Position numbers and translations under genes: made by a program
In this document: piece after piece, positions 37,995 through 57,548 of the stretch
How the letters are laid out: every line of letters starts with the position of its first letter
Numbering within the stretch: position 1 is the first letter of the stretch
Origin: Bdellovibrionales bacterium
GTDB lineage: Bacteria > Bdellovibrionota > Bdellovibrionia > Bdellovibrionales > CAYMLA01
Assembly: GCA_965217115.1 (NCBI GenBank)
Contig: OZ244239.1
Location: forward strand, 640,001 to 704,000
DNA length: 64,000 bases
Direction of reading: 5' to 3'
Notes under the pieces: generated by a model
Databases searched by the model: none
Told to the model about the DNA's origin: nothing
What the model saw: the letters and a program-made list of their open reading frames with translations, nothing else

Positions 37995-40289
37995 ATGAAG
38001 CGAATATTAAAATTATCTCTTACTCTTATCTTCCTACTCTTCACCATTTTTGGTTTGTGGGTTTTTCGCCTTGATCAAACAATCAAAAATAAAATTGATG
38101 GGAATCGCTTCCTACCTCCAACAGAATTTTATTCTTCATCCACTAAATTAACTCAAAAACAGACGGTTTTCCTTCATCAAATTGACGACACCTTTCATCA
38201 AGCACAGTTTCGCAAAAGGCCTCCCAACTCATCTCTCTTTCCTGGCGACTATAGTTTGTGGAGCCCAACACAATGTCAAAAAAACACCTATCTGAAAATC
38301 CCCCCTGAAACCAAGCACTGCCTCGCCTTCAGAGATTTTAATACTTCATCCCAACAAATTCAACTTCTTGTCCTAGAAGAAAACCACACTCAAGAACATT
38401 CTAAGAAAAAAAATGAACAAAAAATCGCCTCCATCTACCAAGGACCTCCGTTTAAAGAAATCAAGCAAACACTGCTTCCCCCTCTTCTCTTTGCGCAATA
38501 CATTGGCAACTCTCCCACACAAAGAAAAATTGTCTCCCTAGGAAGTATTCCCACCCATTGTAAAAATGCTTTATTAGCCATTGAAGACAGTCAGTTTTTA
38601 GAACACTCAGGAATAAGTCCTCTGGCTATTCTAAGAGCCTTTTGGAACTTAATCAAAAAGCAAAAAATTACCCAGGGTGGTAGCACCATCACTCAACAAT
38701 TAGTCAAAGTTTATTTTCTCAATAGCGAACGTACTTTTAAACGTAAAATTATTGAAGCCGTCATGGCTCTTATCTTAGAACATCGAATTAGCAAAGACGA
38801 TATTTTAGAGCTTTATACTAACTCTATATATATGGGACAACAGGGGGTTTTTCAAATTCGAGGCTTTGCCGCTGCCTCAGAATACTATTTCAATAAACCC
38901 ATAAACAAGATCAACCTCCCCCAGTGCGCACTACTTGCCGCCACACTCAACAGCCCTGGCCTCTTCAACCCATTCACTCAACCAGAGAACTCTCGCAATC
39001 GCCGTAATCATGTCCTCAAACGAATGGCTCAATTCAAAATGATCTCCTCTCAACAAAAAGATTCTGCCCAAAAAGCTTCCCTCCCACAGAAACCCTCATC
39101 TAATCTAAAGGACAATGCTTCTTATTATATCAACGCCGTTAGACAGAAACTAAAAAAACTTAATATTTCAATGAAAGATGGAGGTAGAATTTACACCTCT
39201 CTGGATCTCAACGCACAAAAAACTGCCCGACAAGCAATCAACAGGCAACTCAACCGTCTTGAAAAAAACCGCCCTCAACTGAAAAAATCCGGCCATTCTC
39301 TACAAGCTTCTTTGATCTCCGTTGACACCGCCACGGGACATATCAATGCCTTAGTTGGAGGACGCAACTACAAAAAATCTCATTTCAATCGTGTTCTTGA
39401 ATCCAAGAGACAAATTGGTTCTTTAATGAAACCCTTTGTTTATTTAACTGCCCTAGAATCTTTAGATGAAAATGGCAACCCTATCACTCCGCTCTATCAA
39501 ATAAACGACTCTATCTTTACCCACTCCTATGAAGGACAAAAATGGACTCCCCATAACTACAATAAGAAATATCTCGGCCCTATTCCCCTCTACTTTGCTC
39601 TAAAAAACTCTCTGAATGTTCCCACCGCTAAAATTGGTTTACAAATCGGCCTCGAAGCTATTATCGACACTGCCAAACGCCTTAAAATTAGTTCCAGTCT
39701 AAAACCCGTTCCATCTCTCACTCTCGGCGCTTTTGAAGTCTCTACCTGGGAATTAGCACGGGCCTACACAGCGATCGCCCGAATGGGAAATCTCATTGAT
39801 ATTTCTCTTATACAAAAAATTGAATCCCTTAAAGGTGATACTCTTTACCTTAATTCTCCCTCGATAGAACAGGTTGTCTCCCCTAGTGTCGCAGCTGTCC
39901 TCATTGGCATACTTAAAGAAACCTTGCGCACAGGGACCGCTCGTTCCATCGGCAAGTGGTACGGCTTTAACCGTATCGCTGCTGGTAAAACTGGCACAAC
40001 GAGTGATCATCGCGATGCCTGGTTTTCAGGTTTCACACCGAGAAATCTCACCATTGTTTGGGTTGGTTTTGACGACAATCGCTCTCACAAACTGACTGGA
40101 GCCTCCGGTGCTATTCCCATCTGGGCTGATTATATGAGAAACACAACTCTACAATATCAAGACGAAGATTTTAACTGGCCAGAGAGTGTCACCCCCCATT
40201 TCTACTCCCGTGAAAACCTACAAAGATGGCCCCTCCCAGAACTGCAGTGGCCTGATTTTCAAGGAATTGAACTTATTATTAAAAAATAA
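37995..40289 (+). CDS. mrcB: Class A penicillin-binding protein (PBP1b-like)
   Basis: AIED..F..H.G, QGGSTITQQLVK, RK..E; transpeptidase motifs SLMK, SLN, KTGT. Confidence 0.9.
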   Translation: MKRILKLSLTLIFLLFTIFGLWVFRLDQTIKNKIDGNRFLPPTEFYSSSTKLTQKQTVFLHQIDDTFHQAQFRKRPPNSSLFPGDYSLWSPTQCQKNTYLKIPPETKHCLAFRDFNTSSQQIQLLVLEENHTQEHSKKKNEQKIASIYQGPPFKEIKQTLLPPLLFAQYIGNSPTQRKIVSLGSIPTHCKNALLAIEDSQFLEHSGISPLAILRAFWNLIKKQKITQGGSTITQQLVKVYFLNSERTFKRKIIEAVMALILEHRISKDDILELYTNSIYMGQQGVFQIRGFAAASEYYFNKPINKINLPQCALLAATLNSPGLFNPFTQPENSRNRRNHVLKRMAQFKMISSQQKDSAQKASLPQKPSSNLKDNASYYINAVRQKLKKLNISMKDGGRIYTSLDLNAQKTARQAINRQLNRLEKNRPQLKKSGHSLQASLISVDTATGHINALVGGRNYKKSHFNRVLESKRQIGSLMKPFVYLTALESLDENGNPITPLYQINDSIFTHSYEGQKWTPHNYNKKYLGPIPLYFALKNSLNVPTAKIGLQIGLEAIIDTAKRLKISSSLKPVPSLTLGAFEVSTWELARAYTAIARMGNLIDISLIQKIESLKGDTLYLNSPSIEQVVSPSVAAVLIGILKETLRTGTARSIGKWYGFNRIAAGKTGTTSDHRDAWFSGFTPRNLTIVWVGFDDNRSHKLTGASGAIPIWADYMRNTTLQYQDEDFNWPESVTPHFYSRENLQRWPLPELQWPDFQGIELIIKK

Positions 40290-40379
40290 ACAATCTTCAT
40301 TCAAAATGCCAAAATGACACCTGAATTCATGGAATAATTTTCTACGGAGCTTTTACTCAGCTTCTTTCTAGACCTTTTC

Positions 40380-40396
40380 TTGGCTCTCAAATTGCT
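40380..40396 (+). promoter_or_regulatory. sigma54 (RpoN) -24/-12 promoter upstream of the radical SAM gene
   Basis: TTGGCTCTCAAATTGCT equals TGGC-N7-TTGCW with exact GG-N10-GC spacing, ending 44 nt before the GTG start. Confidence 0.7.
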
Positions 40397-40440
40397 ATAA
40401 CTCTAGTGAACCTACCTTAAGTAGGGCAAAAGGACACCAA

Positions 40441-41757
40441 GTGAACTTAAGAACAAGGCAAAACATTGTCTCTATTAGAACCGAAGAAGGAGATTATGTT
40501 GGTTTTCACAGCGAAAACTTAGAGGTGGCCTCCCTAGACGAGAGCGCCTGGCTAGCTATGACCGAGTCCCACGGAGGAATTGAGAAACCTACCTCACAGG
40601 CCTCTTTAGAACTCAATGTATGGAATCAATCTCGCAATCCTGATTCCAAAAATATGCTCACCTCACAAAAAGTACGCAGCATTACCATCAATGTCACCCA
40701 ACTCTGTAACTTTAACTGCTCTTACTGTGCGGCTAATGGCGATGGCACCTATGGTGACCCTGTCGCGAAAATAGATATCGAACAAACTATTCCCCAGCTC
40801 AAGTATTTCCTCAATGCTCTCACCCATGGAGATCATTTCCACATTCATTTTCTCGGTGGAGAACCACTCCTTTACCCAAAGGCCATAGAAACTATCTCTA
40901 AGTACGCTCAGCTCTTTACTGCTGGGAAAGACATATCGCTAAAATTTTCAATCACGACCAATGGAACTTTACTCACAGAAAAAAACATCCAACTTCTCAC
41001 TAAACTCAATTGCCACGTGCAAATCAGTCTTGATGGGCCTCCTGAAATCAATGATAAACAAAGACACAGTAAGAAATCACCCTTCAACACATCCAGTATT
41101 GTTCAAGGACTTAAAAGATTACAAAAAGAGGCCGCTCAACTCGGCAGTATCGGTCTTAGTGCTGTCTTCAATGAAAACAACATGAACGTGGTTGAATGCT
41201 ACGAGTTTTTAGATAAATTCGATACTGATTGGATAGAGCTGACCTTTTCTTTCACCGATAAGTCCCCACTACTTTCTCAACAGTATGCTGAGCAGATGCA
41301 GAAAGTCGCAAGCTTAGCCTATAAGAAAAATGGCCTCGATGGGTTAAAAAAAATTAAAGCCTTCAATAATATTTTAAATAATATCGACCAGCGAACTCGT
41401 ATCAGAAACTACTGTGGAGCAGGTAAAGACTTCCTCATGATAGATGCTCGTAATCAAATCTACTCATGCCCTTGGGATGTGGGGACCGTTTCGGAAAAAA
41501 TTGGAGATTTAGACAAAATTGACCAGAGAAAGCGTAGCACCTATAAAAAAGACCTCGTGGACAAAAAATCTTGTCAAACCTGCTGGGCACGCTTTCTTTG
41601 TGGTGGAGGCTGTATGTTTACCCACAAAATGGCCACTGGAAATAAGAAAAAAGTGGATAAAGATTTCTGTGACCGCACAAGAAGCTTGATTGCCACAGCA
41701 ATTATATACTATGAAAGAGAAGGGAGAAAAAATGATGAAACATATCAAAATAATTAA
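40441..41757 (+). CDS. Radical SAM/SPASM peptide maturase (ranthipeptide CteB/PapB/QhpD-like)
   Basis: CNFNCSYC, GGEPLL, TTNGTLL, SLDGP; 7-Cys SPASM domain (CGAG...SCP...CQTCWARFLCGGGC...FC); about 75-aa N-terminal extension that may be an RRE. Confidence 0.92.
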   Translation: MNLRTRQNIVSIRTEEGDYVGFHSENLEVASLDESAWLAMTESHGGIEKPTSQASLELNVWNQSRNPDSKNMLTSQKVRSITINVTQLCNFNCSYCAANGDGTYGDPVAKIDIEQTIPQLKYFLNALTHGDHFHIHFLGGEPLLYPKAIETISKYAQLFTAGKDISLKFSITTNGTLLTEKNIQLLTKLNCHVQISLDGPPEINDKQRHSKKSPFNTSSIVQGLKRLQKEAAQLGSIGLSAVFNENNMNVVECYEFLDKFDTDWIELTFSFTDKSPLLSQQYAEQMQKVASLAYKKNGLDGLKKIKAFNNILNNIDQRTRIRNYCGAGKDFLMIDARNQIYSCPWDVGTVSEKIGDLDKIDQRKRSTYKKDLVDKKSCQTCWARFLCGGGCMFTHKMATGNKKKVDKDFCDRTRSLIATAIIYYEREGRKNDETYQNN

Positions 41758-41824
41758 AAACACAGGAAAAGGCACTAAAAAGCCCTCAGGAATCCAATGT
41801 ATTCCTCTCGGAGATCTTGACTAA
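41732..41824 (+). CDS. Putative RiPP precursor, 30 aa: MMKHIKIIKNTGKGTKKPSGIQCIPLGDLD
   Basis: Not in the ORF track. GGGAG at 41722-41726, ATG at 41732 (or 41735), TAA at 41822-41824. Overlaps the rSAM 3' end by 26 nt. SCIFF-like MKHIKI leader and a single Cys. Confidence 0.8.
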   Translation: MMKHIKIIKNTGKGTKKPSGIQCIPLGDLD

Positions 41825-41833
41825 TCCCTGAAC

Positions 41834-41863
41834 GTAGCACACTGCAACGATGTTGCTGTGTAC
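41834..41863 (+). other. Stem-loop directly 3' of the precursor ORF (no U tract)
   Basis: GTA(G)CACA(CT)GCAAC-GAT-GTTGC-TGTG-TAC. Confidence 0.55.
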
Positions 41864-41897
41864 AATTCTCAATATTTCGACTACATATCTAAGAGAC

Positions 41898-43727
41898 ATG
41901 AAATCTCTCGCTCTGAATCGTATTCTAAGACTCGCCTTTGCTTTATCCATTGCTGCGCTCGTTAATGAAATTAATTTAGATTATATTGAATCCTACATAT
42001 ACGATCTTCGTGTACGTTTATCTCCAGCTCCACAAGTGTCTGGGCATGTTTCCACTGTCTCTATCTCTCCATCCACCGTTCAATTCTTCCAAGGCGTCCC
42101 CTCTATGGGACATCACGTTCAAGCACTCAAACAGTTACTAAAAGCCAATCCTCGATCTGTAACTTATCTTACTAAACCAGATCAAATTTTTGGAACTCCT
42201 AAAGAAATAGCTGAATTCGCCAAGCTCGCTAAAAAAATTCCTTTTTACGTTCTTGCCAATCATCTTTCTATGAAGGGAGAAGATAACAAATTCTCCATGC
42301 CCAAGCCTCTAAATAAACTCACAGTCTTTTCTGGTCCTAAAACAGCTGACACCACTCTTTTTGCTAAGGATGGGGTCACACGAAGAGCTCTATACTCTTA
42401 CCAAAATCAACCTTTATTACAGGTCCATCTCGCCCAATCTTATAACACCCATATTAAAGACCCTGGAAAAGTTCGAGGACTATGGAGTTTTCGTGACTCA
42501 AACCAAGTTTATATTCACTACGCCCCAAAAGGCTCCTTCATTCAAATTAAATTTGAAGACCTCGTTAAAGGAGAATTTGATCCAAAAAACATTAATGACA
42601 AAATCATTCTCATAGGAACTGATTTAGGAACAACTATCAAAAACTATGCTTCGAGCCCCTACTCAAGAGCTATTGAACATGGCCTTCCTACGCTTGAACT
42701 CAACGCTAACATGATTGACACTTTCATCCGTAACTCTGCTCCCATTCAATCACCTAAGTGGCTCAATATTCTACTTACTTTTATTACTTCTCTCATCACC
42801 GTCTATGTGGTTCTTTCCATCCACCCTCTAAATGGACTTTTGATTATTGTTGGTATCTTAGGTGTGTTCTTTCTTACGGCCTATTTATCTTATTGGCCTT
42901 TTGGAATATGGCTTAAAATATCCCACCCTATTGCCACTATCTTTATGTGTTATTACTTTTTTATTCCCTATCGACTTATTAAAGAAAATCGCCGCAGTTG
43001 GGAGTACTACCAAAAAAATAAATTACTCACTAAAGTTGAGGAGTTAAAAGATAATTTCATTAGTATGATGTCCCACGATCTTAAAACTCCCCTGGCGCGA
43101 ATCCAAGGAATGGCTGATGTCATAAGAACTGACCAAACTGTCTCTCTATCCGAACAGCAAAATCAAGCTGTTGAAACCATCCAAAGCTCATCATTGGAGT
43201 TAACAGATTTCATTGAATCCATTCTCAATTTTAGCCGTATTGAAAGCCATGGTGTCGAACTGCAATTTAAGTCACAAGATGTTAATCAGCTCATCAAAGA
43301 AAGTATTAGAAAGTTAGATTTCAAAGCCAAATCGAAGAATATCGAACTCATCAGCGAACTTGAACCTCTTTTTAGCTTGAAGATGGACCCCTATTTAATT
43401 CGCCAGATTCTTACCAATCTCATAGAGAATTCCATTAAATATAGTCCTGAAGGGACTAAAATTCTGATTAATAGTGATGAACAAGACGACTTCATTGTTG
43501 TTCAAATTTCTGACCAAGGCCAAGGGATTTCTAAAAATGATCTCGAAAATATTTTTATGAAGTTTTATCGTTGCAAAGAGGCAAAAACTTCAGCCATCAA
43601 GGGGTCAGGGTTGGGCCTTTACCTCTCTCAATACTTTGCCCATTTACATAAAGGCAAGATCACAGTGGAAAGTGATCTCAATATGGGCTCCACTTTCAAT
43701 CTCTACATCCCCTACAATAAAAATTGA
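41898..43727 (+). CDS. CHASE2-domain sensor histidine kinase
   Basis: N-terminal TM segment; CHASE2-like motifs (YDLR.R, DGVTRR, KIILIG, SP, E..AN); three TM segments; SHDLKTPL; N box NLIENSIKY, D.GQG, GSGLGL. Confidence 0.9.
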   Translation: MKSLALNRILRLAFALSIAALVNEINLDYIESYIYDLRVRLSPAPQVSGHVSTVSISPSTVQFFQGVPSMGHHVQALKQLLKANPRSVTYLTKPDQIFGTPKEIAEFAKLAKKIPFYVLANHLSMKGEDNKFSMPKPLNKLTVFSGPKTADTTLFAKDGVTRRALYSYQNQPLLQVHLAQSYNTHIKDPGKVRGLWSFRDSNQVYIHYAPKGSFIQIKFEDLVKGEFDPKNINDKIILIGTDLGTTIKNYASSPYSRAIEHGLPTLELNANMIDTFIRNSAPIQSPKWLNILLTFITSLITVYVVLSIHPLNGLLIIVGILGVFFLTAYLSYWPFGIWLKISHPIATIFMCYYFFIPYRLIKENRRSWEYYQKNKLLTKVEELKDNFISMMSHDLKTPLARIQGMADVIRTDQTVSLSEQQNQAVETIQSSSLELTDFIESILNFSRIESHGVELQFKSQDVNQLIKESIRKLDFKAKSKNIELISELEPLFSLKMDPYLIRQILTNLIENSIKYSPEGTKILINSDEQDDFIVVQISDQGQGISKNDLENIFMKFYRCKEAKTSAIKGSGLGLYLSQYFAHLHKGKITVESDLNMGSTFNLYIPYNKN

Positions 43728-43857
43728 CATTTTTCGTCTGTATTTTTTTCACACCATCCATAAATTACATAACAAGCATTTTTTTCCCAAAAACAGTCAA
43801 AAAACACTTATTATGTGAACAAGAGATATATTTGTTTTTTGCAAAGGAAATATCATT

Positions 43858-45378
43858 ATGAACCATAAGCTAAAAGTTCTTGTAGTCGATGATGACCAAG
43901 GCCTGCGGCTGTCTATCAAGAACACACTCATAAATACAGAGAGATTTGACGTCGACGAAGCCTTCGACGGTATCAACGCTCTAGAAAAAATCGCCGAAAA
44001 CAATTACTCTCTTATTCTACTCGATGTCGATATGCCCAGACTCAATGGTCTACAAACACTAAAGAAAATCAAAGAACAAGACCCCGGAATCACCGTTATT
44101 ATTATGACGGCCCATGCAACAATCAATGATGCTGTCACAGCCGTGAAAAAAGGGGCCTATAATTATCTTTCCAAACCTGTCAGTGGCAGTGAACTCATCG
44201 AAAACATAGATAATGCCCTTGCTGCTTACAATATTATCTCCAGCGTAGCTCGCTCCGCCCCTGTTCTTGTGGAAGAAGGACGTAAAATAGTGGGCAATAC
44301 AGCACAGATGCAGAAAGTCTTTAATATCATCAATCGTTTATCAAAAGTTGACACCCCAGTGCTTATCCGTGGAGCCTCTGGGACGGGAAAAGAATTAATT
44401 GCTCGCGCCATTCACATGAACTCTGATAGAAAGAATGAAAAATTTGTCGCTATCAATTGCTCCGCTATCCCTGAGAATCTTTTTGAATCAGAACTCTTCG
44501 GCCATGAAAAGGGCTCTTTCACAGGAGCTGAGCAAAGAAAAATAGGTAAATTCCAATTCGCCGAGGGCGGCACTCTTTTTCTCGATGAAGTTGGCGATAT
44601 GCCTGGACTCATGCAAGTTAAATTATTACGTGTTCTACAAGAAAAAATATTCACTCCTGTAGGCGCCAACAGAGAACTTGATTCCAATGTCCGTATTATT
44701 GCTGCCACCAACCGCCCTCTAGAGAAAATGATACAAGAAGGGACCTACAGAGAAGATCTCTTTTATCGTCTTAACGTAATGCCTATTTTTCTCCCATCTC
44801 TTAAAGAACGGGTCAATGATATCGACTCAATGGTGAATCACTTTATTAAAAAGTTCAATCACACCCACCAAAAATCCATAACTAGCGTCACTCCCGATGC
44901 TTTAGCTTGCATAAAAAAATATGACTGGCCTGGAAATATCCGTGAACTTGAAAACGTGATTGAACACGCTTTTATCATGGAGACCAACCAAGTCATTTCT
45001 GTCCTCTCACTTCCTGAGTCTTTACTCGCCTCCACAGGAGTTGACATAGACGCTCTCTGTGCGGCACAAAATAATGCCTATAATAAACTAGCTGAAAATA
45101 TGTCGATACGACAAAACGTAGCGGCCCATGAAGACAAAGAACCTGTGAATATCGATCCCACATCAGCGCCTAGTCCTGACAGCACTATCATTGAGATATC
45201 ATCTGATAACTTAGATTTTTCTGTGCAGAAAGAGTCCTTTGAAAAAGAATTTATCATTAAAGCCCTAAAAACATTTAAGGGCAGAATCAATCAAACGGCC
45301 CTACACGCCAATATTCCAAAGAAAACTCTATTGCGCAAAATCGAAAAATACGGGATCAACGCCAAAAAATATTTTTAA
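43858..45378 (+). CDS. NtrC-family sigma54-dependent response regulator (REC-AAA+-HTH)
   Basis: VVDDD, LLDVDMP, GASGTGKE, ESELFGHEKGSFTGA, FLDEVG, WPGNIREL, C-terminal Fis-type HTH. Confidence 0.96.
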   Translation: MNHKLKVLVVDDDQGLRLSIKNTLINTERFDVDEAFDGINALEKIAENNYSLILLDVDMPRLNGLQTLKKIKEQDPGITVIIMTAHATINDAVTAVKKGAYNYLSKPVSGSELIENIDNALAAYNIISSVARSAPVLVEEGRKIVGNTAQMQKVFNIINRLSKVDTPVLIRGASGTGKELIARAIHMNSDRKNEKFVAINCSAIPENLFESELFGHEKGSFTGAEQRKIGKFQFAEGGTLFLDEVGDMPGLMQVKLLRVLQEKIFTPVGANRELDSNVRIIAATNRPLEKMIQEGTYREDLFYRLNVMPIFLPSLKERVNDIDSMVNHFIKKFNHTHQKSITSVTPDALACIKKYDWPGNIRELENVIEHAFIMETNQVISVLSLPESLLASTGVDIDALCAAQNNAYNKLAENMSIRQNVAAHEDKEPVNIDPTSAPSPDSTIIEISSDNLDFSVQKESFEKEFIIKALKTFKGRINQTALHANIPKKTLLRKIEKYGINAKKYF

Positions 45379-45531
45379 TAGACTCGCTTTTTAAAGAGTG
45401 ACTCAGCACCAAAAATAAGGACCCATCAAAATTGTCAATGGAAAGTTAAATTTTTCCGCGGCTCGTAAAATTTTCTAGTTTTCATTTTCTTATTGAAGTT
45501 AAAAGTAAGTGCCTGTAGTTTGCAAAACTCA

Positions 45532-45981
45532 ATGGCTGTATCTAATCTACCTCCTCAGGCTTATACCAAAGACACTCTGACAAAGGCTTTCGCCTGGTTG
45601 CAGACTCAAACAAAGGAAATCAAGGACATAGCCACTTCTCCCGAGATTTTAGTTGGTCTCTTCCACAGGGATAAACGTCGCGAAGACTTCTCTGCCCCAG
45701 CAAACTCACAAGAGTTCAAACTAGAGCTGAAGTCCCTTTCAGGAGAAATGCAGCCATTTATTAAAAAACCTCGAAAAACTGAAGAAAGTCCTCAGGCTGT
45801 CACTGCTCAGAAGGCATCAACCCAGTCTTCATTAAACCAATCTAGTTTTCTATCACAATTAGATCCTGAAACTGAAAATCTTATCAATGAAGTCACCCAA
45901 AACCTCAATCTCAGTTCTCCCAAAGAAGCCCTTCGTATGCTCATCATCCTAGGCTATAAACAAATCAAGCCTGTACTCTAA
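45532..45981 (+). CDS. Hypothetical protein with a C-terminal ribbon-helix-like segment
   Basis: ORF between the regulator and ileS; PQAYTKDTL.KAF.WL and LNLSS..EALRMLI.LG; function unknown. Confidence 0.65.
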   Translation: MAVSNLPPQAYTKDTLTKAFAWLQTQTKEIKDIATSPEILVGLFHRDKRREDFSAPANSQEFKLELKSLSGEMQPFIKKPRKTEESPQAVTAQKASTQSSLNQSSFLSQLDPETENLINEVTQNLNLSSPKEALRMLIILGYKQIKPVL

Positions 45982-46095: not shown

Positions 46096-48903
46096 ATGGG
46101 AGAGACTCCTGATTACAAAAGCTCCATCCATTTACCTAAAACTAGTTTTCCCATGAAAGCTGGGCTTGCAACTAAAGAGCCTGAACAGCTCAGAAAGTGG
46201 CAGGAGAATAAAATTTACAACAAGATGGCCTATCGCAACAAAGGAAAAAAACATTTTACCCTTCCCGATGGACCTCCCTATGCCAATGGTGACATTCATA
46301 TGGGCCACGTTCTCAATAAGGTTCTTAAGGATATGGTCATCAAATATCGCAATATGGCAGGTTACTGCGCTCCCTTTATTCCTGTCTGGGACACTCACGG
46401 TCTGCCCATTGAACACGCCGTCACAAAAAAACTCGGCTCCAAACGCCAGAATATGACTAATAAAGAAATTCGTGACCTCTGCCGCAAGGAAGCCATGAAA
46501 TGGGTCGACAAACAACAGGAGCAATTTCAACGCCTAGGTATCATGGCCGATTGGGACAACAAAAACCTTACCATGCAACCTTCCTACGAAGCAGAAGAGG
46601 TGCGCCAGCTAGCTAAAGCATTTAAAAATGAGGTTCTCTACAAAGGAGAAAAACCCGTTTATTGGTGCTGGGCCCTACAGACAGCCCTCTCTGATGCTGA
46701 AGTCGAATACCAGCAGCACACAAGCCCCTCAATCTACGTTAAATTTCCCATCACTGAAAAACTAGAAAAATTAGACTCCCCTAGTAAGCCTGTATCCTTT
46801 GTTATTTGGACTACAACTCCATGGACCATTCCTGCCAACATGGCCATCTGTCTGCACAGAGATTTTGATTATGAACTTTTTGAAAACTCTGATGAATACC
46901 TTCTCATTGCCAAAAACCTCAAAGAAGCTGTCGAAAAGGACACTGAGAGATCTCTCATCTCCACAGGTAAAATCTTTAAGGGTCACCAACTCGAAAATTT
47001 AACGGTCAACCACCCCTTTATAGAAGGACGTCAGCCCCTCGTTATTCTAGGAGATCACGTTACTTTAGAGACTGGAACAGGCTGCGTACACACAGCTCCC
47101 GCCCACGGACAAGATGACTTCTTTGTCGCAAAAAAATATGACCTTCTCCCCATCAATTACATCGAAGCTAACGGAACTTTCTCTAATGAAGTTCCAAGTG
47201 AGATTTCTGACCTGAGCGGACAGAACATATTTAAGGCGAACCCCACCATTATTGATAAGCTCTCCAAAAGTAAACATCTCCTTGCTGTTAAAAATATCAC
47301 CCACAGTTATCCCCATTGCTGGCGCTCTAAAACTCCTTTAATTTTTCGCACAACTCCACAATGGTTTATTGGTATGGACATAGAGAAGAATAGTATTCGA
47401 AAAAAAGCCAATGCCATTATTAATTCCATCGATTTTTTCCCTGAATGGGGAAAGCAGCGATTCAGCGCCATGATAGCTAACCGTCCTGATTGGTGCATTA
47501 GTCGTCAACGATTTTGGGGGGTTCCCATCCCCATCTTTTATTGCAATGCCACAGAAGAAGCGCTTCTTGATTACGATGTTATGATGAAAATTGCCGACTG
47601 TATGGAGAAGAATGGTGGCCTTGAAGCCTACTGGGACACTCCCATCGAAGAATTTCTCACAGATGACATTATCTCCAAATACGCTCAAAAAAGTGACTCT
47701 CCTGAAAAGTTTGGAACAGAAGGCTTTAGCCGTAGCAGAGATATTCTCGATGTATGGTTTGATAGCGGTGTTCTTCACAGCGCGGTAAAAACTCCAAATT
47801 CTGATGATATGCAATTTCCTGCCGACGTGTATCTTGAGGGAACCGATCAGCATCGTGGTTGGTTCAACACCAGCCTGATCTCTGCTCTAGCTGCAACAGG
47901 AGAGGCTCCCTATAAAGCTCTTATCACCCACGGTTTTGTTGTTGATAAAGATGGTAAAAAAATGAGCAAGAGCCTAGGCAACACAGTCTCCCCTAAAGAA
48001 CTTATTAATAGCAATGGTGCTGAAATTTTACGATTTTGGACTTCCTATGAAGACTATTCTAGAGATCTCACATGGGGTGATGAAGATCATAAACGTGTCA
48101 TGGACACTTATCGCAAACTCCGCAACACCATGCGTTTTTTATTAGGTAATTTAGATGATTTTGATTTTAAAAATGATCACATTCCCTATTCACAGATACT
48201 TCCCTTAGACCAATGGGCTTTAGGACGCTTAAATCTTCTCAACGAAAAAATGACGAGTGCCTTTGAGAGTTATTCTTTCTATAAAACCTATCACGCTCTG
48301 AATAGTTTCTTCACCGTAGATATGTCATCTACTTATTTAGATATTATCAAGGATCGTCTTTACACTTGGAAGAGAGACGGCCTAGAGAGACGCTCATCCC
48401 AAACCGTGATTTATCATATTATCCATAATACCTGTGGGTTAATGGCTCCAGTTCTCTCGTTTCTTGCCGAGGAAGTTTATTCTCACTTAAAAGACGGAAA
48501 TGCCGAAAGTATCTTTCTCACCGACTATCCAAAAACACAAGATAAATGGGTCAACGCTTCTGTAGACAAGGACTTTGTAACAATTCTCCAAGTACGAAGC
48601 GACGTGTCTAAAAATCTTGAATCTTTACGCACTGATAAAACCATCGGCTCCAGTTTAGACGCACAAATAATTCTCACTGTTCCTAAATCAACATTTGATA
48701 TTTTAAAAAAATACGAAAAATCTCTCATGGAGCTTTTTATTGTTTCGCAAGTCACTCTAAAGGAAGGGAAGGAGTTAAATATTTCAGCTTCTCTAGCTGA
48801 AGGTCTTAAGTGCGTGCGTTGCTGGCATATACACACAGAAACAGGCAAGAATTCAAGTTACCCAGACGTTTGTCCTAAGTGTGTTACGGCTTTGAGTACC
48901 TGA
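46096..48903 (+). CDS. ileS: Isoleucine--tRNA ligase (type 1)
   Basis: DGPPYANG.IHMGH, WCISRQR.WG, KMSKS, C-terminal CVRC..CPKC. Confidence 0.98.
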   Translation: MGETPDYKSSIHLPKTSFPMKAGLATKEPEQLRKWQENKIYNKMAYRNKGKKHFTLPDGPPYANGDIHMGHVLNKVLKDMVIKYRNMAGYCAPFIPVWDTHGLPIEHAVTKKLGSKRQNMTNKEIRDLCRKEAMKWVDKQQEQFQRLGIMADWDNKNLTMQPSYEAEEVRQLAKAFKNEVLYKGEKPVYWCWALQTALSDAEVEYQQHTSPSIYVKFPITEKLEKLDSPSKPVSFVIWTTTPWTIPANMAICLHRDFDYELFENSDEYLLIAKNLKEAVEKDTERSLISTGKIFKGHQLENLTVNHPFIEGRQPLVILGDHVTLETGTGCVHTAPAHGQDDFFVAKKYDLLPINYIEANGTFSNEVPSEISDLSGQNIFKANPTIIDKLSKSKHLLAVKNITHSYPHCWRSKTPLIFRTTPQWFIGMDIEKNSIRKKANAIINSIDFFPEWGKQRFSAMIANRPDWCISRQRFWGVPIPIFYCNATEEALLDYDVMMKIADCMEKNGGLEAYWDTPIEEFLTDDIISKYAQKSDSPEKFGTEGFSRSRDILDVWFDSGVLHSAVKTPNSDDMQFPADVYLEGTDQHRGWFNTSLISALAATGEAPYKALITHGFVVDKDGKKMSKSLGNTVSPKELINSNGAEILRFWTSYEDYSRDLTWGDEDHKRVMDTYRKLRNTMRFLLGNLDDFDFKNDHIPYSQILPLDQWALGRLNLLNEKMTSAFESYSFYKTYHALNSFFTVDMSSTYLDIIKDRLYTWKRDGLERRSSQTVIYHIIHNTCGLMAPVLSFLAEEVYSHLKDGNAESIFLTDYPKTQDKWVNASVDKDFVTILQVRSDVSKNLESLRTDKTIGSSLDAQIILTVPKSTFDILKKYEKSLMELFIVSQVTLKEGKELNISASLAEGLKCVRCWHIHTETGKNSSYPDVCPKCVTALST

Positions 48904-55877: not shown

Positions 55878-57548
55878 TTATTTTCTAATATAGTGGGTAA
55901 ATGCCACCAAACCAAAAAAAGCTGCTATGCCGTAACCAACCCAAGCTATCAATGGAATATCTAACCACTTCATTCCAACCTGAGCTTGCACTAAAACTGA
56001 AGACCCTAAAAGCAAGCTTCCAATCACCAATCCTAAAAAGACAAGACTCGAAGATCTTTCAACTTCTCTCTGTAGTCCCTTAACTTCATCCACACGCAAT
56101 CTAAAAATATGCTCTGGACTATTCACCTTTCTCATAAAATGCTTCAATTGACGAGGCAACGAATACAACAATGACGTTGATTCTCGAATAAGCATTGAAA
56201 ACTCTTTGCCCATTTTTTCTTTATCATAACGATGCTTAACCATCTCTCCTGCAAAATCTAATGCCAAAGCAAGAAAATCAAAATCTTTTTTAATCAAATG
56301 CCCCACACTCTCTAAAGACATCAAAGATCTAAAAAAGAGTAGCAACTCTGACGGGAGAACCAACCCATATTTTGACGTCGCCACAGCTGTATCGAGCAAC
56401 AATCGACCCATATTGAAATTCTTTAGTGTCAACCCATAATAGGGCGCAATAATTCCACGCAAATCTCTAGCCAATAAATCCAAATCAACTTTTTCACTAA
56501 ATGGTGCTAGCTCTACATACTCGTAGGCCAAACGATCATAATCTTCACTGGAAATCGCAACCAACATATTTGCAATCGCTTTCTGAGTTTTAATATTCAA
56601 TCTACCTACAACACCAAAATCAATTAAGCCAATCTGACTTCCAGGTAAAACAAAAAGATTCCCTGCATGCATGTCGCCATGAAAGAGTCCATCTCTAAAA
56701 ACCATCTCCATAAAATTACGGATCACCGTAGCAAGTAACTGATCTCGATCTCCATCGTAAATATCCCAATCTTTTTCTTTCATTTGGTTCAATGATGTCC
56801 CAGAAAAAAATTCTAAAACCATCACTTTTTCTGTGTTTAAATCCATAAAAATCTGAGGGATTTTAATTTCAAGAGTATCTGAGAAATTATCTTGAAAACG
56901 ACGGACGTTATTCGCCTCAACTACAAAATTAGTTTCTAACTGTAACGTCCTAAAAAACTCATCGACAATCGCCAGTGGGCTGTAAGCACGGCTCTCTGGT
57001 ATATATTTCTCTAACAATTCTGCCAATAAATAGAGCACTCCTAAATCTCCATTGATCGTTTCAACGATACCTGGTCTTTGCACTTTTATGACTACACTCT
57101 CTCCGTTGATCAGAGTTGCCCTATGCACTTGAGCAATACTCGCAGCCCCTAACGGCTTCTCTTCTACATGGGAAAATATTTGATTTATTGCTCCTAATTC
57201 ACTCTCAATAACTTCATGTATATTTGTAAAAGGCTCTTCTTGGACTCGATCATGCAAGTTTTTGAATTCTTCAATAAAATTCTCTGGAAGAAGATCAGGA
57301 CGAGTTGCCAGAAGTTGACCCAGTTTTACAAAAGTTGGCCCTAACTCTTCAAAACTCATTCTCACTCTTTCTGCCATAGTGTACTGCTCTAAATTTAAAA
57401 CTGACCGCCCAGATATAAAACGTTCTAGTTTCATCTTAACAGCTAAATTCTGAAATCCATGGCGCGCAAAAACAACCACAATCGTTTTTAACCTTCCTGC
57501 ATTTCTCCATGTTTTACCAATCTGCTTTCCTGTTTCTAAAAACTTCAC
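55878..57548 (-). CDS. ubiB: AarF/UbiB (ABC1) family atypical kinase
   Basis: LGPTFVKLGQ, AASIAQVH.A, KVQRPG, FHGD.H.GN, DFG.VG. Confidence 0.9.
   Translation of the reverse strand: MKFLETGKQIGKTWRNAGRLKTIVVVFARHGFQNLAVKMKLERFISGRSVLNLEQYTMAERVRMSFEELGPTFVKLGQLLATRPDLLPENFIEEFKNLHDRVQEEPFTNIHEVIESELGAINQIFSHVEEKPLGAASIAQVHRATLINGESVVIKVQRPGIVETINGDLGVLYLLAELLEKYIPESRAYSPLAIVDEFFRTLQLETNFVVEANNVRRFQDNFSDTLEIKIPQIFMDLNTEKVMVLEFFSGTSLNQMKEKDWDIYDGDRDQLLATVIRNFMEMVFRDGLFHGDMHAGNLFVLPGSQIGLIDFGVVGRLNIKTQKAIANMLVAISSEDYDRLAYEYVELAPFSEKVDLDLLARDLRGIIAPYYGLTLKNFNMGRLLLDTAVATSKYGLVLPSELLLFFRSLMSLESVGHLIKKDFDFLALALDFAGEMVKHRYDKEKMGKEFSMLIRESTSLLYSLPRQLKHFMRKVNSPEHIFRLRVDEVKGLQREVERSSSLVFLGLVIGSLLLGSSVLVQAQVGMKWLDIPLIAWVGYGIAAFFGLVAFTHYIRK

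Follow-up and report, generated by a model that had tools for sequence, protein, structure and literature searches.

A hallmark of Gram-positive bacteria is signalling by peptide pheromones that histidine kinases sense. In the ComQXPA system of Bacillus subtilis, the genes come in the order maturase (the isoprenyl transferase ComQ), precursor, membrane kinase and regulator (NarL-type), without a dedicated exporter; polymorphism affects the maturase, the peptide and the N-terminal part of the sensor together as one block, and the C-terminus of the kinase and the regulator are conserved. The staphylococcal agr locus also encodes a maturase, a cyclic-peptide precursor, a kinase and a regulator, shows autoinduction, and has a hypervariable region that spans maturase, peptide and sensor. 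Nisin and subtilin, which are peptides made by ribosomes and modified after translation (RiPPs), signal to a two-component system (NisRK, SpaRK) that induces their own operon. To our knowledge, few kinase-sensed peptide pheromones are known in didermic bacteria, and the ligands of CHASE2 domains are largely unknown. Here we analysed a window of 64,000 nucleotides (the whole stretch; positions 640001-704000 of the single 2.17-Mb contig OZ244239.1, assembly GCA_965217115.1, 39.6% G+C) from a bacterium of the order Bdellovibrionales. It contains a cassette composed of a radical-SAM/SPASM peptide maturase, a 30-aa precursor peptide, a CHASE2 histidine kinase and an NtrC-type activator, behind a sigma-54-type promoter. 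We give an even chance to the reading that this cassette is a peptide-pheromone two-component system, with the peptide as ligand of the CHASE2 kinase. This is the single most likely reading, because the maturase has been swapped at one site, because maturase, peptide and sensor co-vary as a block, and because this block breaks inside the kinase gene.

The cassette resembles ComQXPA in its gene order, in the lack of an encoded exporter and in its pherotype pattern, but the two have no homologous part: here the maturase is a radical-SAM/SPASM or an ATP-grasp enzyme, the sensor is a CHASE2 domain read as periplasmic, the regulator is a sigma-54 AAA+ activator, and the host is didermic. The gene order of a ComQXPA-type cassette and its polymorphic block set against a conserved core were both found, with the ATP-grasp enzymes fitting in part. 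The first-pass annotation of this DNA had compared the locus with agr. The functional likeness stands, although on the pattern of block polymorphism ComQXPA is as close an analogue as agr. In the 86 cassette peptides compared, the tail after the Cys is 3-12 residues long, and exactly four in 34 of them, which is the agr ring size. Unlike agr, the cassette has no AgrB-type membrane protease, a CHASE2 domain instead of the polytopic AgrC sensor, an NtrC-type regulator with sigma-54 instead of LytTR, and an expected thioether (an ester or amide at ATP-grasp loci) instead of a thiolactone. AgrB, AgrD, AgrC and LytTR domains were not found in the four cassette proteins; the locus is agr-like in its working at most.

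Other described systems share single parts with the cassette. SCIFF/thermocellin (CteA/CteB) and freyrasin (PapA/PapB) are similar in the CxxxCxxC and SPASM cysteines and in a short Cys-bearing substrate, but the substrate here has one Cys and not six, a C-x-P core, a K-H-I-K-K leader and no fixed acceptor, and those systems are not coupled to a kinase, an activator or sigma-54. Microviridins and other graspetides (MdnA with MdnB/C; chryseoviridin CdnC) are similar not to the window, but to sister loci in families f9, f11 and f7 (we refer to families, genomes and loci by the handles f, G and L), which also have an ATP-grasp maturase and a short precursor. These sister loci differ in a single putative i-to-i+4 ring across x-P-x in place of a cage, and in the position of the peptide before a CHASE2 kinase and behind a sigma-54 promoter. 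Nisin and subtilin differ in being Gram-positive lanthipeptides with dedicated transporters, proteases, immunity genes and OmpR-type regulators. By term search, “CHASE”, “sigma” and “Bdellovibrio” are absent from the main text of a phylogenomic survey of graspetides (PMC8939145). Our literature searches, which did not cover bioRxiv supplements, turned up no description of this cassette. Systems of this kind are known, from agr and from the polymorphic pheromone block of ComQXPA; the parts are not, namely a radical-SAM or ATP-grasp macrocyclase, a CHASE2 sensor and a sigma-54 activator in a didermic predator.

Five co-oriented genes on the + strand lie between the genes of PBP1b (37995-40289) and IleRS (46096-48903). 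The features of this region are the following:
40305-40321, + strand: weak candidate enhancer (upstream activating sequence) half-palindrome, ~76 nt 5' of the -24 element
40381-40396, + strand: sigma-54-type -24/-12 element TGGCTC-N5-TTGCT, from its spacing and its conservation at orthologous loci
40441-41757, + strand: radical-SAM/SPASM peptide maturase, 438 aa, GTG start, from Pfam and NCBIfam matches
41732-41824, + strand: precursor peptide, 30 aa, from a Shine-Dalgarno sequence and homologous small open reading frames (ORFs) at orthologous loci
41898-43727, + strand: CHASE2 sensor histidine kinase, from domain matches; alternative in-frame ATG at 41850
43858-45378, + strand: NtrC-type sigma-54 activator (REC, AAA+, HTH_8), from domain matches
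45493-45981, + strand: conserved 162-aa protein, no Pfam or NCBIfam match

All four genes placed on the + strand by the first-pass annotation, from maturase to activator, are present. Its gap of 73 nt between peptide and kinase holds for the ATG at 41898, whereas the in-frame ATG at 41850 would give 25 nt; alignments with kinase orthologues begin at about residue 10 of the protein that starts at 41898. Between the genes we saw no terminator-like site or significant hairpin, and no plausible + strand sigma-70 site ahead of the kinase, so the four genes most likely form one transcript. A hairpin at 41839-41861 was considered as an attenuator or terminator 3' of the peptide and was rejected, as it folds no better than shuffled sequences (z 0.15). 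One related locus, L029, has a near-perfect inverted repeat (~35 nt per arm) 3' of the peptide stop and a 483-nt gap to the kinase, and peptide and kinase may be transcribed separately there.

By comparison across loci, the operon structure, the assignment of the substrate to the maturase and autoregulation by an NtrC-type activator are well supported. We infer the chemistry of the modification, the export and leader removal, the binding of the peptide to CHASE2, and that, of the nine activators in the genome, this one acts on this promoter. In the proposed mechanism, the sigma-54 promoter would drive a single operon, and the radical-SAM/SPASM enzyme would recognise the basic K-H-I-K-K leader of the 30-aa precursor and modify the single Cys of the C-x-P core. 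The processed peptide would reach the periplasm or the outside by some route and be sensed there by the CHASE2 domain of the kinase. The kinase would then phosphorylate the NtrC-type activator, which would bind upstream and re-activate the sigma-54 promoter, closing a positive feedback loop.

The replacement of the maturase was found among relatives of the same order. The radical-SAM maturase is present in 18 of 60 such relatives and an orthologous kinase sensor in 41. The 23 genomes with the kinase but without this maturase keep the same PBP1b ... IleRS neighbourhood, and the activator follows the kinase in all 22 of them with enough contig. Eight of these 23 loci keep an ORF of ~25-44 aa between promoter and kinase (six in f9, one in f7, and one in f11, the last read from the printed sequence). 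These precursors have a Shine-Dalgarno sequence 5', a Lys-rich N-terminus resembling K-I-K-K, and no Cys. Directly upstream of the Cys-free peptide, a divergently transcribed gene encodes a protein of ~370 aa that we identified as an ATP-grasp RiPP maturase: it matches the Pfam RimK model (1e-6), its profile matches 5ig9 (2.3e-30), CdnC (2.6e-29) and AMdnB (8.4e-29), and all five members scanned match TIGR04187, MvdD and MvdC, with best E-values from 6e-41 to 1e-36 and scores below the cut-offs. Among 301 sampled genomes of the order, the enzyme occurs in 7/7 genomes of f9, 1/1 of f11 and 1/5 of f7, and was not found in f10 (0/104), f5 (0/104) or f12 (0/35). With this disjoint distribution over families, the radical-SAM and ATP-grasp maturases exclude each other. 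The ATP-grasp gene adjoins the cassette in six loci; in two genomes it lies on a separate short contig, where it adjoins PBP1b.

The Cys-free cores have the form [S/T/K]-x-P-x-[D/E] and mirror the C-x-P-x-[D/E] of some radical-SAM cores; C-x3-D/E is found in six radical-SAM cores, and the core in the window is C-x4-D. On this pattern, the ATP-grasp enzyme would join Ser, Thr or Lys to the acidic residue four positions away, across x-P-x, and the two chemistries may produce a similar small ring. An ATP-grasp (graspetide-type) maturase with a Cys-free peptide in place of the radical-SAM pair in other families is new here. The radical-SAM-made cyclic peptide of the first-pass annotation is refined accordingly: the predicted ring chemistry is not fixed, and other families have a different maturase class.

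Also new here is that maturase, peptide and kinase sensor vary as a block, with the kinase core and the activator conserved. The sensor part that co-varies with peptide and maturase comprises about residues 26-296 of the kinase. The clearest mosaic is found between the f9 genomes G009 and G030. Their flanks are nearly the same (PBP1b 94-95% DNA identity; 95.5% along the 5.25 kb that run from kinase nt 943 through the activator, the 162-aa gene and IleRS), and between these flanks only the ATP-grasp gene aligns, with 66% DNA and 52% amino acid identity. The peptide types of the two genomes differ, and their identity is 37% in the sensor but 99% in the kinase core and 99% in the activator. Within the genus Bdellovibrio, loci L066 and L124 have different cores and are 94% identical in the kinase, 37% in the sensor and 55% in the maturase, and L081 and L089 are 93% identical in the kinase and 36% in the sensor; Bdellovibrio pairs with the same core have sensors 56-70% and maturases 72-80% identical. 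For three pairs, drawn from two families, the point in the kinase gene where the DNA becomes similar again lies at nt 943, 975 and 1017, in the membrane region after CHASE2.

The first-pass expectation that peptide core and CHASE2 sensor co-vary was borne out, by the mosaic loci, by incongruent trees and, across 78 loci, by partial Mantel correlations, for which the slow-evolving kinase core is an imperfect control for time: r between peptide core and sensor given the kinase core was 0.358 (0.36; reached in 0 of 2000 permutations), r between maturase and sensor given the kinase was 0.509, and the reverse control, r between peptide core and kinase given the sensor, was 0.028. The f9 sensor tree consists of three pairs with 99-100% support that match the three peptide types. 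The f9 tree of kinase plus activator instead pairs G009 with G030 (100/100 support), and in AU tests each data set rejects the grouping of the other, with p values of 8e-5 down to much smaller ones. Sensor jumps (35-42% identity with an activator at 84% or more, or a kinase core at ~93-94%) were seen only in peptide-bearing loci; there were none among five close peptide-less pairs, a small sample.

The linkage of the genes was examined in 91 distinct maturase loci, after removal of 8 duplicates. The synteny expected from the first-pass annotation is nearly complete: where there was enough sequence, the kinase lies directly 3' of maturase and peptide in 83/84 loci and the activator 3' of the kinase in 70/73, and a small ORF is found between maturase and kinase in 86/86 distinct loci (a count that took in loci with at least ~200 nt between the two). 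The exceptions are L116, with another gene after the kinase, L121, with the activator inverted upstream, and L135, which is rearranged and contains Ns. Distances from the cassette to the flanking PBP1b and IleRS genes vary among loci. Among the best 80 related loci, all but one have titles of Bdellovibrio, Pseudobdellovibrionaceae or Bdellovibrionales. That one, L116, is labelled as a Streptomyces griseus metagenome-assembled genome and carries a Bdellovibrio-type PBP1b, maturase, peptide and kinase; it is probably a misbinned contig. When 301 genomes sampled across the phylum were searched for the maturase (E at most 1e-40), it was found in the genome of the window and in 41 more from the order, including 35/36 of f10, and in 1/233 genomes of other orders, there on a 1.1-kb contig from a genome with contamination of 4%. 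The cassette is specific to Bdellovibrionales.

The precursor in the window, MMKHIKIIKNTGKGTKKPSGIQCIPLGDLD, overlaps the 3' end of the maturase gene by 26 nt, and its ATG is preceded by a Shine-Dalgarno-like AAGGGAG. It has a basic leader with a K-H-I-K motif, and its only Cys belongs to a C-x-P core close to the C-terminus. Over the 86 loci, precursors are 27-81 aa long (median 37). The basic leader is present as exact H-I-K-K in 50 peptides and in a looser form in 76; there is just one Cys in 83 peptides, and in 84 a Pro stands one or two residues after the Cys. Asp or Glu occurs within three residues before the Cys in 34 of them. Locus L087 (7253-7560) has one maturase followed by two tandem precursor genes with different cores.

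The maturase matches the Pfam model Radical_SAM with 61.5 bits (cut-off 29.5). Its best NCBIfam model is the PapB ranthipeptide maturase (1.4e-54, 185.6 bits), whose cut-off of 340 it does not reach, followed by nif11-type, QhpD and SCIFF models, with anSME lower; scores are below the other equivalog cut-offs as well (SCIFF 124.5 of 425, QhpD 144.3 of 453, anSME 91.8 of 349). By these matches, the enzyme is a separate family within the radical-SAM/SPASM superfamily. In 15 orthologues, the CxxxCxxC cysteines C89, C93 and C96 and the C-terminal cysteines C325, C343, C378, C381, C387, C391 and C410 are invariant, and an N-terminal domain of ~75 residues is conserved; the alignment to SPASM maturase models extends to the C-terminus of the models. 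The closest solved structure is 5wgg (E 1.8e-46), which we take to be CteB (the structure table names it only “Radical SAM domain protein”), and the anSME structure 4k37 is more distant (6e-19). Since no acceptor residue is conserved, we infer the chemistry only from the relatives of the maturase; by analogy with them, it would most likely be a small thioether ring on the single Cys. Formation of formylglycine, as by anSME-like enzymes on the C-x-P-x-R sulfatase motif, was rejected and is kept as a minor possibility: Arg is found at +4 in only 15/86 cores, and the maturase is closer to thioether-forming maturases than to anSME.

The kinase has CHASE2 (75.8 bits, cut-off 26.3), HisKA (62.6) and HATPase_c (84.9) domains. 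With membrane segments read by eye from the hydrophobic stretches, the CHASE2 domain is predicted to be extracytoplasmic, that is, periplasmic. A predicted complex of this domain (residues 24-298) with the peptide had a median score of 0.19, against a mark of 0.32. In the activator we found Response_reg (102.5 bits), Sigma54_activat (238.4), HTH_8 (27) and AAA_lid_14 domains. The GSFTGA loop, a variant of GAFTGA that had been noted at the outset, is readable in the translation. The activator scores under the cut-off of every named equivalog, and its identity across the order is 61-71%. The whole genome has one rpoN gene and nine strong sigma-54 activators. Four sequencing runs contain this DNA, and none of the four is recorded as RNA.

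The promoter sequence TGGCTCTCAAATTGC at 40381-40395 has the canonical GG-N10-GC spacing, and the element lies 45 nt before the maturase start. In the window, this spacing pattern has 2 matches against 1.47 expected, which is not above chance; the second exact match, TGGCTAGAGATTTGC, lies at 56459-56473 on the - strand. The promoter in the window gains weight only because it is conserved across orthologous loci. For scoring, the sigma-54 consensus (TGGCAC/TTGCW-like) was used, with GG and GC required and seven further consensus positions counted, within 300 nt 5' of the maturase. An element scoring at least 5 of 7 was present in 62/86 orthologous loci, in agreement with the prediction of a conserved -24/-12 box, versus 1.9% of ~18,000 control windows from the same loci; the conserved elements mostly lie 28-110 nt from the maturase start. 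A sigma-54 element also precedes the kinase in 14 of the 23 loci without a radical-SAM maturase, so the operon looks autoregulated whatever its content.

A palindrome, GGTGTC-N5-GACACC, was derived by eye from the orthologous upstream regions and is a candidate site of the activator. With at most two mismatches it is found in 18/86 loci (0.3% of controls), and with at most three in 42/86 (6.5%). A scan of the window's own genome for a regulon, with palindrome and sigma-54 score combined, was uninformative because the site in the window is like 333 others. Elsewhere in this genome (G000:C1 ~1409090-1409800), a good GGTGTC-N5-GAC palindrome lies 64 nt 5' of a sigma-54-like element, TGGCTTCATTTTTGCT, downstream of which a strong ribosome-binding site is followed by a gene for a 175-aa secreted Cys-rich repeat protein. 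Here a sigma-54 activator may have a second target.

Several observations weigh against the peptide being the ligand, and the peptide-less loci are the main evidence that it is not the only ligand of the kinase. The kinase and activator are kept without maturase or peptide in 15/41 related genomes, which belong to families f3, f4, f6 and part of f5, and neither a radical-SAM nor an ATP-grasp maturase was found anywhere in these 15 genomes. Of 26 positions with at least 90% conservation among maturase-bearing loci, 19 are retained in the sensors of these genomes, and measured against the activator these sensors diverge at much the same rate, so CHASE2 does something without this peptide. On the tree of kinase plus activator, which follows family taxonomy, the state of the maturase needs at least 3-4 changes; the simplest reading of the trees would be vertical descent with repeated loss of the maturase. 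Independent occurrence of the two gene pairs, which the first-pass annotation had named as evidence against its proposal, is thus seen on one side only: kinase and activator occur alone, and maturase and peptide without the kinase were not found. Its caveat about the missing exporter and leader protease was upheld, as no gene for either was seen in the cluster; Peptidase_C39 was not found in the whole 2.17-Mb genome, and no hydrophobic signal sequence was found in the peptides of the 86 loci. There is no conserved thioether acceptor, with Asp or Glu after the Cys in only 40/86 peptides, and the copy of the palindrome in the window is weak, with 3 mismatches and 333 such sites in the genome. 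As for co-variation, the 5' part of the kinase gene, which encodes the sensor, physically adjoins the peptide and maturase genes, and one recombination tract would move them all regardless of any interaction; the groups for the f9 tree tests were named after the identities had been seen; and the ATP-grasp enzymes match the sensor types incompletely, those of G030 and G057 being 50% identical despite a shared peptide type.

The peptide-less genomes, the missing exporter and protease and the confounding by linkage keep two other explanations alive. The peptide could be an output and not an input: CHASE2 would sense some other cue from the envelope or the prey, the activator would turn on its own sigma-54 operon, and the peptide would be a regulated product of that operon, such as an antimicrobial, a protease inhibitor or a metal-binding RiPP, with co-variation arising from adjacency in a recombination-prone block. 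Linkage alone does predict some co-variation, no exporter is dedicated to the peptide, the 15 peptide-less genomes retain the sigma-54 promoter together with kinase and activator at similar sensor conservation, and graspetides and ranthipeptides are mostly known as bioactive products. We nevertheless consider this explanation unlikely, as the variable block breaks off on its right-hand side at the boundary of sensor and membrane region inside the kinase gene and not at gene borders, in the three pairs from two families; sensor jumps occur in peptide-bearing loci only, within the small sample noted above; and two unrelated classes of maturase are found at the same spot ahead of the same kinase. 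Alternatively, a non-diffusible peptide could tune the gain or duration of the kinase/activator response from inside, in the manner of MgrB acting on PhoQ. This would do without an exporter or protease, would fit the co-transcription of peptide and kinase with no terminator between them, and would still explain the co-variation with the sensor. It seems improbable to us, since the peptide is non-hydrophobic, the kinase varies in a part that is read as periplasmic and would be out of reach of a cytoplasmic peptide, and costly macrocyclising maturases are unusual for small modulators of kinases.

That there is no functional coupling at all, the gene order being inherited by accident in a syntenic PBP1b ... 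IleRS region and the maturase and peptide having a separate role, is already disfavoured, and we hold it to be very improbable. The wider neighbourhood is indeed also syntenic across the order; however, insertions flank the four-gene unit on both sides with none within it, the promoter stands ahead of the maturase and not of the kinase where both are present, the maturase is replaced at the same site in other families, and the trees of the sensor and of kinase plus activator are incongruent.

Under the reading of the peptide as the CHASE2 ligand, the cassette is a concrete candidate for a CHASE2 ligand-receptor pair with natural specificity variants. The recruitment of two unrelated macrocyclases to one receptor family suggests that selection acts on the small ring and not on its chemistry. 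A wider generalization, which is possible if doubtful, is that these predators use type-specific macrocyclic RiPP pheromones sensed by CHASE2, with a thioether (radical-SAM) or an ester or amide (ATP-grasp) depending on the family. If true, this would provide the first class of peptide ligands for CHASE2 and the first agr/ComX-like pherotype system in a didermic bacterium. Given that the model strain's candidate genes are at their highest during growth of the predator sealed inside its prey, what the loop signals may be confinement or the presence of kin in the bdelloplast and not population density.

These candidate genes are Bd3357-Bd3360 of B. bacteriovorus HD100. In the sections of a published study considered here, these consecutive genes rise on bdelloplast entry and not in host-independent growth, and Bd3359 and Bd3360 are named in the main text among the genes up-regulated in predation (PMC2797640). 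The entries are as follows (PMC2797640):
Bd3357: heme biosynthesis, fold change 1.59 / 1.58
Bd3358: hypothetical, fold change 2.23 / 2.03
Bd3359: histidine kinase, fold change 2.18 / 2.11
Bd3360: zraR-like, fold change 3.02 / 2.98

The EggNOG labels given for these genes in a second study are Radical SAM, Histidine Kinase and sigma54-specific regulator (PMC12546842). In the parts of that study considered, the Bd3360 protein peaks at 3 h (log2FC 1.96, FDR 6e-16), Bd3359 is up by 0.86, Bd3357 has no significant change, and Bd3358 is not listed (PMC12546842). In our search of the maturase family (880 proteins, E at most 1e-60), a member from another Bdellovibrio is named “heme biosynthesis protein”; HD100 was not among the entries of a cluster look-up. 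Bd3357-Bd3360 are candidate orthologues of the window genes on the grounds of names and gene order only. Elsewhere, Bd3359 has been given a RAS-like GTPase motif (PMC3526173), which conflicts with the kinase annotation and was not used. If the genes are orthologous, the system is on during growth inside prey and could bear on the timing or coordination of the predator cycle.

Some peptide-less and neighbouring loci have features of their own. In L049 and L051 (f3), which have neither maturase, a 45-aa ORF with a Sec-type signal peptide and a C-terminal G-C-V-I-C-x-E-E-Q lies between PBP1b and the kinase; speculatively, it may encode a Sec-exported, disulfide-closed peptide at the same site. 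Upstream of the kinase in L039 (f6), on the opposite strand, are genes for a 499-aa YydG-like radical-SAM protein, a 105-aa secreted protein, an alpha/beta hydrolase and a peptide/nickel-type binding protein. They were considered as a third type of maturase and do not make a clear case.

The 162-aa protein 3' of the activator is present in most loci of all three states and may or may not be part of the unit. Its nearest atlas clusters are hypothetical proteins of Bdellovibrionota, with a weak lead (0.86) to MatP_C-like clusters. The window's genome also has a paralogous pair of CHASE2 kinase and sigma-54 activator at G000:C1 2028138-2031476 (- strand), with no peptide or maturase beside it; this pair adjoins PilB/PilC-like genes. 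Finally, a second, longer CHASE2 histidine kinase (~745-765 aa) is found directly 5' of the cassette in L052, L054, L058 and L142 (G204), loci that include both ATP-grasp and radical-SAM types.

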